Origin: a virus
Virus genome (UHGV): UHGV-0125821
DNA: 64,000 nucleotides
Direction: 5' to 3' (one strand)
Shown: positions 9,874-48,951 of the stretch, piece after piece
Numbering within the stretch: position 1 is the stretch's first letter
Layout of the letters: every line of letters begins with the position of its first letter
Position numbers and translations under genes: made by a program
Notes under the pieces: model-generated
Told to the model about the DNA's origin: nothing
Databases searched by the model: none
What the model saw: only the letters and a program-made list of their open reading frames with translations

Positions 9874-10078
9874 ATCGGAATGTATGATCTGCATCATCGA
9901 CTGAAGTCATCCATTGCTGAAATTTTTAGTTGATCTTCCATGTTTTCAGGCTTATATTCATGTCGTCGTAGCAAATTCTGCGACCGGGTTTAGCAGCCTG
10001 AATACGAATGCGGACAACCGCAGATATCCGATATTGCGGTATTTTTGTGTCCGTAAAACCACGTTACGCCCGAATTAT

Positions 10079-10155
10079 GGTGGGGCGTGATGGGGAGGCT
10101 TCGGCCTGCTGGTTTCATTCGTGCCAGTCTGCTAACCCCGTCACGTCCTGCCACC
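10079..10155 (+). ncRNA. c4-like antisense immunity RNA (candidate)
   Basis: Long closing stem GGTGGGGCGTGA...TCACGTCCTGCCACC around an AGGC-TTCG-GCCT hairpin; internal CTGCTAAC is complementary to GTTTAGCAGC repeats at about 9988 and 10157, the second just upstream of the icd-like RBS. Boundaries approximate. Confidence 0.35.
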
Positions 10156-10205
10156 CGTTTAGCAGCGGGGCGCAGGTTGTTAAACCTACGAATGAGGCCG
10201 TAACT

Positions 10206-20829: not shown

Positions 20830-22038
20830 ATGAGTCAACACACTGATACTTCTAATCTGGAAATTATCTCGACAGCAATTGAAACGCTGCGCACACAAAT
20901 CGCTCTTATACAGAAACGGAATCCGGGTGATGACCTGTCAAAGCGACTGCACGAGAGTGTCATTGCCACTACAGATAACCTGGTGGCGGAAATCAACAAG
21001 CTGCTTGATGATGGGGCAGTTGATTACAATAAGCTGGTGGATCAGTTTGAGGAATACCAACAAGCAGTTAATGATGGCTTGATCCGTTTTTCACAAGTCA
21101 CAGGCGTATCAGCGACAGTTGAAAGCCTGGGTGATGCAGTTAATCAATTTGCCGCGAATATGCGTAATGAGATCGGCAATCTGGAAGCGCGTCTTGAACA
21201 GGCAAATACACTGCGTAAATCTGCCGAAGCCGATTTGAACCGTTACAAAAAAGACTATCCGCCCAGCCTGACAAAGCGGCTGGATGTTGCGGAGAAGGAT
21301 AACCGCACGCTGAAAAGAGAGCGCCGGGAACTAAAAGAGCGTTTAACCAAGCTCAATCAGCAATGCATTGATTATCAAGGCGAAGGCGTCACACTGCGTA
21401 AAAAGTTGGCTACAGCGCAGAGCATTATCGAAACATTAAAGCGAGAGTGCTCACAGCTTGGTCACGATCTGAACCGTGCTTGTGGCATGGGACAAAGACC
21501 AGAGACATTTCCACTTATGTATGACGGAAGGGATGCCATTGCCTACATCCATGAGTATCCGCACGGCCTGGTTGCGGAAACTGGGCAGCGTGGCGAAGCA
21601 CTGCTGACGGCTAATTACCATCAACAAATCAGAACCAATCGCTTGTTAACGATGGATGTGATCCCATCGGTATGGGGAACGCCGCTTTACTATCGCCTGC
21701 CGGGCTTCGAAAAGGACTGGAATACCGACATAGACGAATGTCTCGCAGATAAAATTATGGCGTACCTGGAGACGGATTTTCCGCGCTTATATCGCCGGAT
21801 TATGGACTCTAAGGATGCGCCAATCGATGAATTAAAAATGCGTCCGGAGACGCTGGAGGCAATCAAGCAGACGGAGTTTGATACTGTATTCAGTGTGGCC
21901 TGCATTCCAAGCTGTTTCCATGAAAGCATTCCGTTCATGCAAGGAGATCGTCGTCAGGAAATCATTGACGCTTGCCGGGTATGGGCGAACGAATGGGATA
22001 AGAAGAATGGGGGTGTAGAAGATCTTTACGGGAAATAA
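20830..22038 (+). CDS. Hypothetical protein with N-terminal coiled coil
   Basis: 402-aa ORF bracketed by operator-like motifs at both ends. Confidence 0.6.
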   Translation: MSQHTDTSNLEIISTAIETLRTQIALIQKRNPGDDLSKRLHESVIATTDNLVAEINKLLDDGAVDYNKLVDQFEEYQQAVNDGLIRFSQVTGVSATVESLGDAVNQFAANMRNEIGNLEARLEQANTLRKSAEADLNRYKKDYPPSLTKRLDVAEKDNRTLKRERRELKERLTKLNQQCIDYQGEGVTLRKKLATAQSIIETLKRECSQLGHDLNRACGMGQRPETFPLMYDGRDAIAYIHEYPHGLVAETGQRGEALLTANYHQQIRTNRLLTMDVIPSVWGTPLYYRLPGFEKDWNTDIDECLADKIMAYLETDFPRLYRRIMDSKDAPIDELKMRPETLEAIKQTEFDTVFSVACIPSCFHESIPFMQGDRRQEIIDACRVWANEWDKKNGGVEDLYGK

Positions 22039-22054
22039 TGTGTTAGAAATCTAA
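22039..22054. promoter_or_regulatory. Operator-like motif TGTGTTAGAAATCTAA
   Basis: Core GTTAGAA immediately followed by TCTAA; right after the 20830-22038 stop. Confidence 0.35.
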
Positions 22055-22196
22055 AATCACAATTCGAATGTATTGATTGTGAGGGTAACTTAACATAGAA
22101 TTTTCCTTGCTGGTGGGCGGTACCCACGTTTCGCTTGCTGGGCTTGATAGTCACTTATTGGTTATTGTTCGCCCACCAGCATTTAACAAATTAAAG

Positions 22197-22209
22197 TGTT
22201 AGAAAAATA
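22197..22209. promoter_or_regulatory. Operator-like motif GTGTTAGAAAAAT
   Basis: Same core as the other copies. Confidence 0.35.
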
Positions 22210-22547
22210 TAGTAACGCAAGAGCACGCTTTGGCACCGTGCAGGCCAAAGTTCAGCAGGTTTAGTGCGGAAAGTGGTTTCAGAGAGAGCACTTTGCGGAG
22301 TAAACGACAATACATGTTGAGCCACGGAAGGTCTTTTTAAGGTGTTCATTGATGATGGTCCGGCAGAGAGTAACGGTACATGCTGCATCTAATCATCAAT
22401 GCACATCTTCAACATTAAGGAGGCATAGGGATTTTTGTGGCGGTTACCTTTTGCCCTGAGTCTCCTTAATGTTGCAGTAATGCACCTATGCGGATGTGGC
22501 CTTGCATTGTGTCTTGAAAGAATGGGGTAAGGCCGGGGATATCCCCA

Positions 22548-22562
22548 GGGGGAGGCACCCCC
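22548..22562 (+). other. RNA hairpin GGGGG-AGGCA-CCCCC (1 of 3 with invariant AGGCA loop)
   Basis: 5-bp stem, 5-nt loop; stems differ between copies by compensatory changes. Confidence 0.4.
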
Positions 22563-22788
22563 GCTGCAACGAACAGCCACAGACGGCAGTCTAGTGATGG
22601 AAACGTGCAAAGACTTTAAACCTCGTTACGGCTGGCGTGGCAAACGCGACAACCGAGACAGAGCGGTGACGGGCGGAGAGAGTGCCGCATCAAGAAAGAA
22701 GCCGACTTGTGATCCCTTTCAGCGGGCATTTGAAAGTGAATCTAGCTCAGGCAGTCGGCTTCTTTCTTGTGTGAGATGTAGCGTATTT

Positions 22789-22812
22789 GCCCATCTTCGG
22801 GTGGGCTTTTTT
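22789..22812 (+). terminator. Rho-independent terminator closing an ORF-poor structured region
   Basis: GCCCATC-TTCG-GGTGGGC followed by TTTTTT; preceded by a long imperfect hairpin at about 22700-22770. Confidence 0.6.
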
Positions 22813-23272
22813 AGGGTTTTCGTCATGGTTAGCGACTTTGCGGCGGTTTAGAAACCGACCATTAAAGTAAATGCAAACGATGATCTGATGATGGTAGCGG
22901 CCTAAGAAGCCTGACGCCACGGGGTATGAGTCGTCCCCCGTCAAAAAATCGACCGCAGAGTGTCCCCGTCTGTGTATTAGGGAACGGGGAGGCATAACAG
23001 GCAAGGGCGCTGGTGTGATTAACCAGATGAATGAGAAGGGTCAGGTCTTTCTGGTCAGCGCCCTTACCTGTTACGTCCCTCCCGCGTAATAGCCATTGCT
23101 TAATGGCATCCTGGGGGAATTTCTTGTAACGGGTATATCCCGTCATGCTGAAGGCGCTAATCACGCTGGAAGCCAGGGTTATGCATCCCCTGTTACTGAA
23201 TTGCAGCCAGGGCGCGGTGCGCCGAAAAGCATACGGAGGTGGAAGCCCTCGCCGGAGACGTACCCGGCAAGT

Positions 23273-23348
23273 GATGGTGTAGCTCAGCGGTTAGAGCGGT
23301 TGACTGTTAATCAACGGGTCGATGGTTCAAATCCATCCACCATCGCCA
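23273..23348 (+). tRNA. tRNA-Asn (anticodon GTT)
   Basis: Manual fold: 7-bp acceptor GATGGTG/CACCATC, D-arm GCTC..GAGC, anticodon loop CTGTTAA, T-arm GATGG-TTCAAAT-CCATC, 3-prime CCA. Confidence 0.9.
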
Positions 23349-23350
23349 AT

Positions 23351-23426
23351 GCCGGTTTAGCTCAGTTGGTAGAGCGCCTGCCTTGTAAGCAGGATGTCAG
23401 CGGTTCGAGTCCGTTAACCGGCACCA
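23351..23426 (+). tRNA. tRNA-Thr (anticodon TGT)
   Basis: Acceptor GCCGGTT/AACCGGC, anticodon loop CTTGTAA, T-loop TTCGAGT, 3-prime CCA; 2 nt after tRNA-Asn. Confidence 0.9.
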
Positions 23427-23847
23427 ACACAACAGGTAAGGGTATTTTGCGACGTCGGAGATCGCCGTGCTTGGCAGAGGGTTCGAATCCCTACGAAGTA
23501 CCCTTACCGTTGTGATGAAGTGCAGCTCTTTGAAGCAACCAGAAGATAAGCATCTGGCTTCACAACATAAACCGCAGGAACGACCAATAAACGGTAGTCC
23601 GTATGGAGAACACCCCGTTGAGGAAGAGGCCTGGCCGGAACCGTAACCGGCACTACAACGTTAAGAACACTGGCGTAACGGGGTCATATCCCAATCTATG
23701 AATAAATGTTGCGTTGCAGCGTGACAACCAGTGTTCTCAACATTGTGGTGAATGCACAGGCTGATGTGCCGCAACTACAGTAGTGCGCGCTTTGCGGGGC
23801 TTGCTACAACCCTGTGTCGGAGTTCAGCACCGACCATCACAATCACT

Positions 23848-23934
23848 GGAGAGTAGGGAGCATGGTGCTCAAACGGTCTTGAAAACCGTCCCATTGCGCA
23901 AGCGATGATGGTTCGATTCCATTACTCTCCGCCA
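23848..23934 (+). tRNA. tRNA-Ser-like gene (anticodon TGA, long variable arm)
   Basis: Manual fold: acceptor GGAGAGT/ACTCTCC, anticodon stem ACGGT/ACCGT with loop CTTGAAA, 4-bp variable-arm hairpin, T-arm GATGG-TTCGATT-CCATT, discriminator G and CCA; D-arm short (3 bp). Confidence 0.45.
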
Positions 23935-24142
23935 GTGCAACGTTAAGAGTATTTGGCTAATTAAGCGAATGCCGGAAGCAGAACCGGATCACCAAATGCG
24001 TACAGGCGTCATCGCCGCCCAGCCAGCCAAGTGCTCTTACCATTGCGGTGAATGCGGTTAAGCGCACGCGGAACAGTTAAAACAATCCTCCTTAGTGGTT
24101 AAGTCAAACATCCCGGCGTTAATTGTTAACTGGTTAACGTCA

Positions 24143-24157
24143 CCTGGAGGCACCAGG
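24143..24157 (+). other. RNA hairpin CCTGG-AGGCA-CCAGG (2 of 3 with invariant AGGCA loop)
   Basis: Same loop as 22548 and 25771 with a covarying stem; followed by a T-run at 24166-24172. Confidence 0.4.
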
Positions 24158-24197
24158 CACCGCAGCTTTTTTATTCGTTAAATAATGGAGTGAGAGG

Positions 24198-24434
24198 ATG
24201 CAGAACAATCCGAACAAATGTCGAACGCTATGGGTGCGGTTATATATTTATGTCGCCCTCTGTTTGATTGTGTCACTGGTTCTGTATGTTTGGCTTTTGC
24301 CAAATATGATCTCATCTGACAGCACAATACTTGTATTGTTGGGAGTCCTTCTCGCGCTCATTTACCCGGCTTTTGCAGTAGTCTTTTTTCGTGAAAAAAC
24401 CAGGAAATTGATTAATGAAAAAAACGTTGATTAG
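24198..24434 (+). CDS. Small integral membrane protein
   Basis: 78 aa with two hydrophobic helices; overlaps the start of the downstream SPFH gene. Confidence 0.4.
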   Translation: MQNNPNKCRTLWVRLYIYVALCLIVSLVLYVWLLPNMISSDSTILVLLGVLLALIYPAFAVVFFREKTRKLINEKNVD

Positions 24435-25221
24435 TGCAGCGATTATTTTTGGTTCTTTATGTCTGACCGGATGCGACCGGGTAGAACCAGGCAATGTAGG
24501 GATCAAAGTAAATAAGCTGGGGGATGATAAAGGTGTCGGCGAAGTAGTTGGCGTTGGTCGCTACTGGACAGGCTGGAACACAGAAGTTTATATCTTCCCG
24601 ACCTTTAAGCAAATGAAGACCTATGATGATCCGTTCAGCTTCCAAATGAGCGACGGGACAACAATTGGTTACCACATTGGTGTAGCTTACAAGGTTGATC
24701 CGGCAAAAGTCACAACTGTATTTCAGACCTACCGCAAAGGCGTGGATGACATTACCGACACTGACCTGCGCCAGAAGATCGCCGATGCACTCAACCGACT
24801 GGCCAGCAAAATGACCACCGATAAGTTTATCGACGGTGGTAAGTCTGAACTGCTGGATTCAGCACTTAAAGATATTCAGGAAGAGATGACCCCCATCGGC
24901 ATTCAGGTCATGAGCCTCTCTTATGTCGGTAAACCGGAATATCCGCCAACCGTTATCGACAGCATTAATGCAAAAGTCACGGCGAACCAGAAAACTCTGC
25001 AACGCGAAGCAGAAGCCAACATGCTGCGCGCAGAAGCTGCCGGACAGGCCGATGCCATTCGCACAAAAGCCCAGGCTGAAGCTGATGCCATTCGTTTACG
25101 CGGTGAGGCTCTGCGCCAGAACCCCGGCGTTATGGAGTTGGAAGCGATCAACAAATGGAACGGAACGCTACCGCAGTATATGACCAGTAATACCGCTGTT
25201 CCGTTTGTTCCGGTGAAATAA
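24415..25221 (+). CDS. SPFH/band-7 (prohibitin/HflC-like) domain lipoprotein
   Basis: Lipobox LTGC in the signal peptide; SPFH-type core and Ala/Glu-rich C-terminal helix (AEANMLRAEAAGQADAIRTKAQAEADAIR). Confidence 0.65.
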   Translation: MKKTLISAAIIFGSLCLTGCDRVEPGNVGIKVNKLGDDKGVGEVVGVGRYWTGWNTEVYIFPTFKQMKTYDDPFSFQMSDGTTIGYHIGVAYKVDPAKVTTVFQTYRKGVDDITDTDLRQKIADALNRLASKMTTDKFIDGGKSELLDSALKDIQEEMTPIGIQVMSLSYVGKPEYPPTVIDSINAKVTANQKTLQREAEANMLRAEAAGQADAIRTKAQAEADAIRLRGEALRQNPGVMELEAINKWNGTLPQYMTSNTAVPFVPVK

Positions 25222-25375
25222 CCAAATAGATAACATGATGGAATTTTGGACGTTTGCCGACAAGAACCCTTGGTGGACATTTTTATTTCTGCTGGTGGTT
25301 GCATATGGGGTCGAGCAAGCAGCAAAAGCCTTACGCGGTCCTGGCAAAAAGCGTAAGCGGAATTAACAGTAATCT

Positions 25376-25451
25376 GGCCCTTTAGCTCAGTGGTTAGAGC
25401 AGGCGACTCATAATCGCACGGTCACCGGTTCAAATCCGGTAGGGGCCACCA
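25376..25451 (+). tRNA. tRNA-Ile (anticodon CAT, lysidine type; tRNA-Met not excluded)
   Basis: GGCCCTTTAGCTCAGTGGTTAGAGCAGGCGACTCATAATCGC... closely resembles E. coli ileX/ileY tRNA; 3-prime CCA encoded. Confidence 0.85.
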
Positions 25452-25770
25452 TATTTGGTTGTAACACGGCGTCTGGCACATGCGTCGTTAGCGGTCTGGT
25501 GACGTTAAAAGGGGTATCTTTGACTCTTGCTTAGGCAAACGGACCAGGTAGCCGGAATGTGCAAGCCCCGGTAACAGTGGCGGACCGAGGACTCACCATC
25601 CTGGCGATTCGGTGTGACAGCCGGAAGAGCACGGCGCACAACAGGAAAAGGCGTTTAATTAGCGTGAGCGCCGTTTCCGTTGTGGTAATTGCGGCTATGC
25701 GCTCGTGACGAAGCCATTTTCATTCACTACGTTCTGATAAGTGACGTCGCCAGGAGTGGCTAACCTGGCA

Positions 25771-25785
25771 GGTGGAGGCACCACC
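25771..25785 (+). other. RNA hairpin GGTGG-AGGCA-CCACC (3 of 3 with invariant AGGCA loop)
   Basis: Third copy with a covarying stem; in the non-coding stretch between tRNA-Ile and the 25907 gene. Confidence 0.4.
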
Positions 25786-25906
25786 GCCACAACTCCTTTC
25801 AATTCATCATATAGCCGCTCAGGCTGTACCCCTTAATTAATACGAAGTTACGACATCACTACCGGTACTTCCGGGGGATAGTCGCGCGTGTAAAAAAGGA
25901 GACGTT

Positions 25907-26482
25907 ATGTTAATGGCGAACGATAACGCATATGCAGAAGAAGATCTCATTTTGAGTGACTTCATAGGGAAGCGTGAACGCTGGACCCAAAAGCGAGAGG
26001 AACTTTACGCCTCATTAGTTCGCAAAGGCGTCAATATCGAAACCGCACAGAGCGGCGATATGACAGTGGTAAGCGTTGGATTGCACGGTGTAAGCGTGTC
26101 AGCAATCAATCATGAGCCATACGTTGCGTTATCCGAGTCAATGGTAAGGTTAGTTAAGTTCCTGAAGTACACAGAAGCGAATAATGTAATCATTGGCAAA
26201 AAGAATATCCCTTTTTCCTCGGCTTTTTACTGGATGATGAAAGGGCTTGATGCCCGGCGGACATCATGGCCTAAAGGGAGCTATATATCGATGTTCCGTG
26301 GCAGCATTGGCAGCAAAGAAAAGCTCTTCGAATTCTTGCCGGAAGAGGCATTCGATATTGTGGAAGGGTGCGATGTGATGGTGATGCCTCGCCTGGTAAT
26401 GATGAATGGTGATTTACAGGCGCAGACAGACTGGTTTGCAACTGGTGTGGATATTATCGCGACTGACTGGGAGGCTTTCTGA
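25907..26482 (+). CDS. Hypothetical protein
   Basis: 191-aa ORF; AAGGAG upstream. Confidence 0.5.
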   Translation: MLMANDNAYAEEDLILSDFIGKRERWTQKREELYASLVRKGVNIETAQSGDMTVVSVGLHGVSVSAINHEPYVALSESMVRLVKFLKYTEANNVIIGKKNIPFSSAFYWMMKGLDARRTSWPKGSYISMFRGSIGSKEKLFEFLPEEAFDIVEGCDVMVMPRLVMMNGDLQAQTDWFATGVDIIATDWEAF

Positions 26483-48637: not shown

Positions 48638-48742
48638 AATACTGACTGTTGCGCCCTGGCATTATCGTGGGGTATATTTCTACGGCACCTTAGAAAAACG
48701 GGTGCCGGGATTGGAACCCCGGATAATGCAAAAGGCGACACA

Positions 48743-48766
48743 GACGCCGAAAGCGTCTTTTTTTTT
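48743..48766 (+). terminator. Rho-independent terminator
   Basis: GACGC-CGAAA-GCGTC followed by nine T. Confidence 0.75.
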
Positions 48767-48815
48767 GTGTCATGCCATCGCACAGCCATACGTAGCGTTT
48801 AGCTCAGAGATCAAT

Positions 48816-48891
48816 GGTAGTGCTGGCTGGGCTGCCGAAAGGCAGGCCGGTTCCCTTTTGCGCCGGTAGTTCCAACCCAGTCAGTGCTACC
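48816..48891 (+). ncRNA. Second c4-like antisense RNA (candidate)
   Basis: Stem GGTAGTGCTGG...CCAGTCAGTGCTACC around a CTGCC-GAAA-GGCAG hairpin; internal GGTAGTTCCAA is complementary to TTGGAAC...GGTAGC around the RBS of the icd-like ORF. Boundaries approximate. Confidence 0.3.
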
Positions 48892-48951
48892 GCCATTGAG
48901 ATTGGAACCTCACGCGGTAGCTCCTTAAATTAGCAAAAGGAGGCTGCCAAT

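Follow-up and report, generated by a model that had tools for sequence, protein, structure and literature searches.

The window analysed here is the whole 64,000-nucleotide (nt) stretch of the virus genome UHGV-0125821. Judged from sequence comparison, positions 22040–25906 of it are an island of non-coding RNA genes on one strand, the counterpart of the ban-operon leader and tRNA cluster of phage P1, and the island contains an element, designated M, that resembles the messenger half of transfer-messenger RNA (tmRNA). The window itself is identified by its sequence as a P1/D6-like phage-plasmid because the island matches coliphage D6 (97.7% identity across 68% of its length), because plasmids match it (35 span at least 80% of it in one stretch, and the best among the matches listed covers it fully at ~96% identity) and because C4 RNA genes are present. 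The island is preceded by a PmgS-like head gene (20830–22038) and followed by a gene with a Tad2-like domain (25907–26482), and all of its features lie on the + strand. At the 5′ edge, two TGTTAGAAA..TAnAnT motifs around a sigma-70-like promoter are followed by a long hairpin (B1), a structured module (S1), a 17-bp hairpin and a terminator. Then come M, hairpin B2, a 190-nt spacer specific to P1-type elements, tRNA-Asn, tRNA-Thr, hairpin B3 and an unstructured stretch with a 3′ remnant of tRNA-Thr. The last part comprises B4, S′, tRNA-Ser, B5, S3 with a U tract, three protein genes, tRNA-Ile2, B6 and S4 (Table 1).

The initial annotation had described the region as poor in open reading frames (ORFs) and had considered further non-coding RNAs likely. 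The present analysis agrees with both statements: the ORFs in 22040–24197 and 25452–25906 are all short, overlap one another and match no family, and hairpin folds, a G-U bias, model matches of the S modules and covariation of the M pseudoknots all point to RNA. That reading was nevertheless generic, with the RNA families unnamed, the protein genes miscounted and the correspondence to the P1 ban-operon leader not visible to it; the most informative element, 22813–22995 (M), was absent from it.

In the GenBank annotation of P1 (NC_005856), the order is Pban with the C1 operator Op72, a “dicF-like region”, trnA (Asn), trnT (Thr), tciA/B/C, trnI and ban, and the leader is under C1 control. The island shares with it the order terminator, conserved 460-nt spacer, tRNA-Asn, tRNA-Thr, TciC-like gene and tRNA-Ile2 at 90–99% identity, so that Asn, Thr and Ile2 are the P1 tRNA set; from 22786 to tRNA-Asn (23272) the identity is 90%. 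It differs from P1 in four respects. The block lies between the pmgS-like and Tad2-like genes and not beside ban, Pban/Op72 and the dicF-like body have given way to a 750-nt leader ahead of 22786 that is specific to D6-type elements, a membrane-protein/SPFH pair stands in place of tciA and tciB, and a tRNA-Ser(UGA) module has been added. The P1 “dicF-like region” shares only its terminal terminator with the window, and a DicF homologue (RF00039) was rejected, there being no Rfam match in the window at E values up to 10.

M came to light when the P1-conserved block was used as a blastn query (“distant” setting), the matches falling on 22815–22998 of the window. The matching phage records number 200, all of them unannotated at that spot, and include Ackermannviridae (phiEa2809, Magnus and PhiSH19), the N4-like phage PD38, Schitoviridae, CS01 (Drexlerviridae), Deseoctovirus C1, a Jedunavirus and Punavirus. 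A pattern search of IMG/VR gave at least 120 stretches with M. Among complete Escherichia coli genomes, 660 of 5,426 (12%) carry it, with 582 places on plasmids and 140 on chromosomes, where the PGAP annotation shows nothing beyond an occasional hypothetical protein; only four GTDB species representatives have it. Neither the six most frequent tag peptides of M nor a tmRNA-like element in P1 or Ackermannviridae was mentioned in the literature searched, which included few subscription journals, and an earlier description is possible. A correspondence between M and the named Pas small RNAs (sRNAs) could not be established, as the text of those papers gives no sequences.

The genetic context of M varies. 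Among 98 distinct loci, 18 have a near-consensus promoter of M itself, which stops a few bases short of the conserved 5′ end, 27 have M directly after a B hairpin and 64 have a B hairpin after M, while ~40% of M loci have no tRNA gene within the flanking DNA examined. In two lambdoid prophages M lies after PR′/tR′ between Q and holin, in the order B-M-B-S′, where it would be part of the late transcript. In phage C1, M occupies a 545-nt gap among tail genes on the opposite strand, behind a near-consensus promoter, and is the sole RNA gene found.

For sequence analysis, 133 M loci were gathered by pattern search. The pattern prescribes 28 bases at and around the resume codon, from the leader to base 8 of the frame, and ends at the second base of codon 3, leaving the codon count, the stop position and the codon pattern free. 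M in the window reads UAAAU GCA AAC GAU GAU CUG AUG AUG GUA GCG GCC UAA, where UAAAU belongs to an A-rich leader, and the E. coli ssrA frame reads GCA AAC GAC GAA AAC UAC GCU UUA GCA GCU UAA (ANDENYALAA*). The first eight frame bases, GCAAACGA, match E. coli ssrA exactly. Across the phages, a near-invariant GCGACUUUGCGG..UUUAGAAAC.GACCA..AA..UAAAU is followed by GCA AAC GA, variable codons and GCN GCN UAA, and M varies least in the leader, 5′ of the resume codon.

The frame consists of 10 codons and a TAA or TAG stop in all 133 loci, with 21 peptide variants of the form A-N-[DE]-x-x-hydrophobic-...-[AV]-A and GCC, GCG, GCT or GCA as codon 10. An in-frame TAG is located 8 codons upstream of the resume codon, with no ATG, GTG or TTG in between (133/133 loci). 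The frame thus begins at a sense alanine codon and ends at a stop codon without having a start codon, as in tmRNA. Single-base differences among 33 distinct frames are synonymous and non-synonymous in a ratio of 593:765, compared with 68:1558 and 400:1206 in the other two frames, indicating that an ssrA-type tag with an AND.. start and a hydrophobic ..AA or ..VA end is under selection at the peptide level. A conventional ORF in M was rejected: the frame has no start codon, and the ORFs opened by an ATG in a neighbouring frame differ in length and show hardly any synonymous bias. The constant length, equal to that of the host tag, the AND start, the hydrophobic-Ala-Ala end and the synonymous bias together argue that the frame is decoded, and decoding without a start codon points to trans-translation as the only known way.

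The frame is followed by two H-type pseudoknots that covary, and its stop codon lies in a small hairpin whose register varies by clade. In pseudoknot a, the pairing of the loop with downstream bases alternates among loci between CCGA/UCGG, CCAG/CUGG, CCAA/UUGG and GUCG/CGAC, and the helix variants include CGGGG/CCCCG, CAAGG/CCUUG and UGAGG/CCUCA. Pseudoknot b is built of CGCAN/NUGUG and a variable G+C helix. In an alignment of 47 sequences, 89.5% of the cells were paired compared with 79.5% in shuffles, and 95 cells carried double changes compared with 26.7, neither value being reached in any of 500 shuffles; these sequences are related by descent, and the counts are support rather than a probability. 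When the partners were slid by 1–3 columns as a control, the pairing fell to 36–58%.

No tmRNA was detected by ARAGORN in the window or in the 98 distinct M-bearing oriented loci. The complete 46.7-kb genome of phage C1 contains M and gave no tRNA, tmRNA or tRNA-like match (ARAGORN; Rfam at E values up to 1). Since C1 lacks any such signal, M, if it works, would use host components. In N4-like phages, T-loop-bearing tRNA-shaped structures recur about every 125 nt after M (PD38, locus L004, 510–1080; locus L096, +170 to +624 from M). For this series, ARAGORN gave odd calls (tRNA-Ala(cgc), tRNA-Cys(aca)) or none, with no support from the Rfam tRNA model. The tRNA-Ala(cgc) and tRNA-Cys(aca) of PD38, which lie beside M, were considered as its partner and rejected on the same ground and for want of G3:U70. 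As a separate observation, the hairpin after M has a 5′ strand, GGUAAGAGCAUUG, similar to the 3′ strand of helix 2 of E. coli ssrA, CUAAGCAUGUAG (22813–23083 compared with ssrA at positions 194–556 of locus L010). Speculatively, M and the following hairpin can be read as a tmRNA whose tRNA-like domain is replaced by a cap and whose large loop is opened before the upstream pseudoknot PK1.

By definition, a tmRNA combines a tRNA half with a message half, either within a single molecule or as two pieces that pair. M resembles tmRNA (SsrA, 10Sa RNA, RF00023) and the coding piece of two-piece tmRNA in its GCA alanine resume codon, in the U and A at positions −5 and −4 of the A-rich leader, in a 10-codon tag of enterobacterial length ending in (V/M/A)AA or AVA, and in the small stop hairpin with H-type pseudoknots after the frame. 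It differs in having no acceptor stem, T arm, CCA or G3:U70, whether in cis, nearby or genome-wide in a complete M-bearing phage, in having only two downstream pseudoknots and ~180 nt instead of 363, and in being phage-borne, often within tRNA/sRNA arrays. M therefore has the messenger side of tmRNA without the tRNA side and should not be filed as a tmRNA; it looks like a new relative consisting of the message half only, while the tRNAs and the STnc100-like family of the island are of already known kinds. In previous surveys, which discarded truncated hits, the phages with tmRNA genes were limited to mycobacteriophages and Bacillus phage G (PMC4131195, PMC11915505). A single half of tmRNA in a phage also occurs in mycobacteriophage DS6A, whose tRNA-like-domain-only (“CDS-less”) tmRNA, a form also found in some plastids, is reported to be an inhibitor of host tmRNA (PMC4131195, PMC11915505). 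It is the opposite half, as DS6A has the tRNA-like domain without a tag frame and M the tag frame without a tRNA-like domain.

Table 1 Features of the island at 22040–25906 of the window. The z scores compare folding energies with shuffled sequences; bits are scores against Rfam models or the covariance model R1; I and D numbers denote repeats.
Feature	Position	Strand	Description and evidence
Promoter-like motif, copy 1	22036–22060	+	(A/T)TGTTAGAAA..TAAAAT; repeat family D3; directly 3′ of the pmgS-like gene
Putative sigma-70-like promoter	22073–22101	+	TTGATT-17-TAGAAT; sole promoter-like match in 21800–26100; consensus match only
Promoter-like motif, copy 2	22189–22216	+	TGTTAGAAA..TATAGT; repeat and motif count
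Punctuation hairpin B1	22400–22484	+	Inverted repeat I1; −37.1 kcal/mol, z −5.2
S1 module	22471–22570	+	Closing stem GUUGCAG/CUGCAAC; GGGGG-AGGCA-CCCCC hairpin by the closing strand; R1 66.1 bits, E 2.5e-16
sRNA-like unit	22686–22812	+	Perfect 17-bp hairpin 22691–22769 (I8), fold z −4.7, then intrinsic terminator 22789–22812
M, tmRNA-like messenger RNA without tRNA-like domain	22813–22995	+	P1-conserved-block search, alignment, frame and pseudoknot analysis
M conserved 5′ domain	22816–22872	+	GUUUUCG, GCGACUUUGCGG, UUUAGAAACCGACCA
M tag frame	22873–22905	+	GCA..GCC UAA = ANDDLMMVAA*
M stop-codon hairpin	22899–22911	+	Small hairpin enclosing the stop of the frame
M pseudoknot a	22919–22924/22936–22941	+	Stem; loop GUCG pairs with CGAC 22950–22953
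M pseudoknot b	22954–22959/22970–22975 and 22963–22969/22984–22990	+	H-type
Punctuation hairpin B2	22987–23083	+	ACAGGCAAGGGCGCUG / CAGCGCCCUUACCUGU; I2; z −5.5; compensatory U-A to C-G change relative to P1
tRNA-Asn(GUU)	23273–23348	+	ARAGORN; Rfam 74.5 bits; P1 trnA homologue
tRNA-Thr(UGU)	23351–23426	+	ARAGORN; Rfam 74.9 bits; P1 trnT homologue
Punctuation hairpin B3	23428–23515	+	I18; z −5.0
tRNA-Thr 3′-end remnant	23638–23653	+	GAACCGUAACCGGCAC; comparison with 23396–23426; D8
Punctuation hairpin B4	23651–23750	+	I5; z −3.9
S′ module	23742–23845	+	First repeat copy ATTGTGGTGAATGC; 8–9-bp closing stem around several hairpins; z only −1.0
Atypical tRNA-Ser(UGA)	23848–23934	+	7/5 acceptor/T stems, G73, encoded CCA, 6-bp variable arm with GCAA loop, short D arm
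Punctuation hairpin B5	23933–24050	+	D8/D4; z −3.7
S3 module, then U6 tract	24042–24175	+	Second repeat copy ATTGCGGTGAATGC; CCUGG-AGGCA-CCAGG hairpin; R1 85.5 bits
78-aa membrane protein gene	24198–24434	+	phrog_1130, E 4e-14
268-aa SPFH/Band_7 lipoprotein gene	24415–25221	+	Pfam PF01145, E 3e-30; phrog_200, E 3e-109
43-aa TciC-like gene	25235–25366	+	39% identity to P1 TciC over 33 aa
CAU-anticodon tRNA (tRNA-Ile2, ileX-like)	25376–25451	+	ARAGORN Met/Ile2; Rfam 68.2 bits; P1 trnI homologue
Punctuation hairpin B6	25637–25684	+	D9/D13; z −4.7
S4 module	25679–25793	+	GGUGG-AGGCA-CCACC hairpin; R1 100.9 bits, E 5.5e-26

The long hairpins mentioned in the initial annotation are six in number (B1–B6) and fold 3.7–5.5 standard deviations better than dinucleotide shuffles. 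They have a common stem, (C)ACAAC-A-GGUAAG(A/G)GC... / ...GCUCUU(U/A)CC-GUUGUG, around variable inserts, and appear to form an undescribed family. In 48 distinct B stems from many loci, G-U pairs outnumber A-C mismatches by 63 to 12 (binomial p 2e-9); therefore, the structure is selected in RNA of the + strand. The outer stem also covaries, as in CAACA/UGUUG and CUAUC/GAUAG. Because B hairpins flank highly variable inserts and are found at the joints of a mosaic common to unrelated phages, they might instead be DNA-level inverted repeats, the ends of recombination or mobile elements that move modules between phages, and not signals for RNA processing. This is unlikely, since the excess of G-U over A-C would not be expected unless the + strand is read as RNA, and since the extensions of the stem covary, although the DNA-level and RNA-level roles are not mutually exclusive.

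The insert of B3 consists of a T arm (GGGUUCGAAUCCC) and a GGAGAUCGCC hairpin, which together form a closed cap resembling the elbow of tRNA on a 14-bp stem with no acceptor end. The GGAGAUCGCC hairpin recalls the D-loop of tmRNA, GGAUUCGAC. Neither ARAGORN nor Rfam recognised B3 as a tRNA, and by analogy it could be a mimic that binds SmpB or RNase P. A B3-type module adjoins M in four loci, after M in L019, L057 and L073 and before M in L037. The P1 ORFs plp and upl (locus L002, 3618–4187, minus strand; 23400–23774 of the window) run antisense to the tRNA-Thr gene and to B3 and B4. The DNA of the window is 99% identical there, but a Gln codon replaced by a stop breaks the plp frame into 37-aa and 49-aa fragments; the predicted product is rich in Cys, Arg and Ser. 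Both plp and upl may be annotation artefacts over RNA modules.

The S modules resemble STnc100 and PasD, Hfq-associated prophage sRNAs encoded near Q (bioRxiv 10.64898/2026.05.13.724894; PMC8550237). They share with these a multibranch fold, a 7–8-bp closing stem (GUUGYGGU...RCCRCAAC), a 5-bp hairpin with an AGGCA loop beside the closing strand and a phage location, which for STnc100/PasD is near Q in lambdoid prophages. The copies in the window differ in scoring below the Rfam threshold and in occurring three to four per array; the likeness is one of sequence and fold. A covariance model, R1, built from 21 S copies all outside the window, matched S4, S3 and S1 in the 64-kb window and nothing else, each having the closing stem and AGGCA hairpin of STnc100, and the stems covary between copies. 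With the Rfam STnc100 model (RF02076), S3 scored 39.5 bits (E 2.8e-6, threshold 47) over model positions 31–147 of 206, while S1 and S4 were not reported. In the equivalent array of phage Magnus, a full-length STnc100 match reached 52.9 bits, which is above the threshold. S′ was not detected by R1 and is placed in a separate subfamily from S1, S3 and S4; homologous pieces are present in 51 loci, lytic phages and lambdoid prophages among them.

Two further elements of the initial annotation, a repeated segment near 23742 and 24043 and a set of AGGCA hairpins, find their place in these modules. The repeat is real and longer than described (23730–23755 and 24030–24055, 26 nt, 85% identical, D4), and the repeated ATTGYGGTGAATGC marks where a B hairpin, with its 3′ strand, meets the 5′ closing strand of the module that follows. 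There are three AGGCA hairpins, with stems that differ and are complementary (GGGGG/CCCCC at ~22548, CCTGG/CCAGG at ~24143 and GGTGG/CCACC at ~25771), and they constitute the last arm of the S modules.

tRNA genes were called by ARAGORN on the window and with the Rfam tRNA model (RF00005) at its gathering score. tRNA-Asn, tRNA-Thr and tRNA-Ile(CAU), which had already been noticed, were all called by ARAGORN, and each exceeded the Rfam gathering score. For the previously reported tRNA-Ser(UGA)-like gene the outcome is divided: ARAGORN accepts it and the D6 record annotates it as a tRNA, so that it is not rejected as one, but it falls under the Rfam threshold, and in the D6 record tRNAscan-SE assigned no amino acid to it. 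The gene scored 45.1 bits with the tRNA-Sec model (threshold 47), a resemblance due to its long variable arm. The tRNA-Sec or allo-tRNA assignment was rejected because the anticodon is UGA and not UCA, the 6-bp D stem of the Sec model is mismatched and a normal 7/5 fold is possible. Most changes among eight variants of the variable arm preserve pairing (U-G to U-A, A-U to G-U); one variant, present in two loci, has an A-G mismatch. The gene occurs in ~10 of the 46 P1-type loci compared and is, from these sequence features, probably a functional but atypical tRNA-Ser. A possible amber suppressor was called by ARAGORN ~1.5 kb upstream of M in an N4-like viral contig (L041): this tRNA, one of a cluster of six, has the anticodon CUA and is labelled tRNA-Pyl in the output.

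The spacers 23083–23272, 23516–23650 and 25452–25636 are confined to P1-type elements. When 23083–23232 and 23516–23650 were folded and compared with shuffles, no significant structure was found (z −0.9 and +0.8, respectively). These spacers could possibly include an internal promoter for the tRNAs.

The window has 10 copies of the motif (A/T)TGTTAGAAA with a TAnnnT hexamer 1–4 nt further on (8646, 20787, 22036, 22192, 31297, 32739, 43233/43258, 47477 and 48139) compared with 3.9 expected, and none of 100 shuffles reached 10. One copy lies ~29 nt upstream of the start codon of the pmgS-like gene, and one pair is an inverted repeat. Its first six bases are similar to the −22 box of P1 late promoters, AAGTTA/ATGTGA. 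The repeats agree with the C1 operator consensus of P1 at only ~9–11 of 17 positions; P1-type C1 operators were rejected, as the motif precedes a morphogenesis gene and is nearer to the late-promoter −22 box. We infer a regulatory role for the repeats as promoter-type motifs, and they may be late promoters of the D6 type. The terminator at 22789–22812, noted initially, is the best terminator-like site of the region, with 7 pairs, a UUCG loop and a T6 tail. Instead of the two short protein genes that had been counted, three are credible, forming an operon at 24198–25366 (78, 268 and 43 aa).

Two observations concern the surroundings of the island. The product of the gene at 25907–26482 (+) is 191 aa long and contains a Thoeris anti-defence Tad2-like domain (Pfam PF11195, E 1e-9; phrog_7362); the counterpart of this gene in D6 is orf6, a hypothetical gene by annotation. 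At 9952–10158 and 48685–48897 (+), Rfam detects two distinct genes for C4 antisense RNA, with scores of 71.9 and 76.7 bits; one is accompanied by an a1/b1 target element and the other by an isrK-like RNA, which suggests two immunity-I-type modules within one element.

In phage T4, tRNAs and small stable RNAs are co-transcribed and released from polycistronic precursors. The island is similar to such phage tRNA clusters in having tRNAs and other small RNAs on one strand, and differs in that the non-tRNA members are a tmRNA-like RNA, STnc100-like modules and a family of long hairpins. From the sequence we infer transcription, processing and any role of M in trans-translation, as follows. The island would be transcribed rightward from the promoter-type motifs at its 5′ edge into one or a few long precursors, in which the tRNAs and B1–B6 would be the cutting points for RNase P, RNase E and probably RNase III. 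The products would be four tRNAs, three or four STnc100/PasD-type sRNAs, the terminator-ended upstream sRNA and the ~180-nt M. The S modules would act as base-pairing sRNAs, as their relatives do, and M would act on the host trans-translation as a template or as a competitor for its factors; either way, the phage would change the fate of proteins from stalled ribosomes during its own development. We assign a probability of about 0.5 to this explanation as a whole. As to the mode of action, we tentatively favour M as a phage-specified tag template, which would be read as an alternative tag on ribosomes entered by the host Ala-tmRNA/SmpB or be used with a separate acceptor piece in trans.

Several points weigh against an action of M on trans-translation. 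M lacks the tRNA-like domain (an acceptor stem with G3:U70, a T arm and a 3′ CCA). Its Rfam matches to tmRNA families are all sub-threshold (15–34 bits, compared with thresholds of 47–84); the best, to tmRNA_permuted, scored 33.5 bits in related loci and 24.1 in the window (threshold 47), and the alignments to tmRNA_permuted, alpha_tmRNA and beta_tmRNA are restricted to the resume and tag part. Duplex energies between M and E. coli ssrA were no better than those of shuffles. In the 5′ domain, which hardly varies, RNAalifold gave invariant pairs only and no covariation, and an upstream PK1 was not established. The 28 bases fixed by the search pattern make the invariance around the resume codon partly built-in, and the codon-like periodicity near the stop could partly stem from the stop hairpin. 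The P1-type M, that of the window included, starts right after a strong intrinsic terminator and has no evident promoter of its own; its synthesis therefore depends on read-through or an unseen promoter. Finally, we know of no mechanism for loading a separate messenger piece onto the ribosome.

Second to the template, and doubtful, is an inhibitor or decoy: M would mimic the messenger domain and pseudoknots of tmRNA, titrate SmpB, ribosomal protein S1, RNase R or rescued ribosomes, and thereby damp the host trans-translation during phage growth. In E. coli tmRNA, contact with SmpB and the setting of the frame fall to the leader 5′ of the resume codon, and the corresponding leader is the part of M that varies least. 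The lack of any tRNA-like domain in phage C1 also fits a decoy, and the inhibitory half-tmRNA of DS6A is a precedent (PMC4131195; PMC11915505). A pure decoy, however, needs no constant frame length, conserved stop, conservative replacements or synonymous bias. Much less probable is that M is a functionless relic of host or phage ssrA in a mosaic tRNA cluster where only the tRNAs and the three proteins work. The missing tRNA-like domain, the sub-threshold Rfam scores and the debris in the region, namely the tRNA-Thr remnant and the unstructured 23516–23650, are what a relic would leave; yet the 98 distinct copies in at least six phage lineages have a mean column identity of 57–73%, the 10 codons and the stop are retained throughout, as are compensatory changes in four helices, a consensus promoter belonging to M itself is seen in some copies, and no RNA gene besides M was detected in C1. 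An ordinary micro-ORF with a non-canonical start and a convergent likeness to ssrA would account for the constraint on the peptide and is similarly improbable, given that in all 133 loci no Shine-Dalgarno-like sequence or start codon lies between the in-frame TAG and GCA, that the first eight bases are those of E. coli ssrA and that the leader, stop hairpin and pseudoknots follow tmRNA architecture.

The RNA modules explain the conservation of “empty” stretches beside phage tRNA genes and provide four new feature types for annotation (M, B hairpins, S modules and S′ modules), and their positions suggest that P1 plp and upl deserve re-examination. M raises the testable question of whether phages rewrite or block the ribosome-rescue tagging of their hosts. 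If the template reading is true, a stand-alone tmRNA messenger module would be present in many enterobacterial phages (P1, D6, lambdoid, Vi1-like, N4-like and T1-like) and would be the first natural tmRNA messenger domain working without a tRNA-like domain of its own. It would represent a split, virus-encoded takeover of trans-translation, in which a phage tag replaces the host ssrA tag on the proteins of stalled ribosomes.

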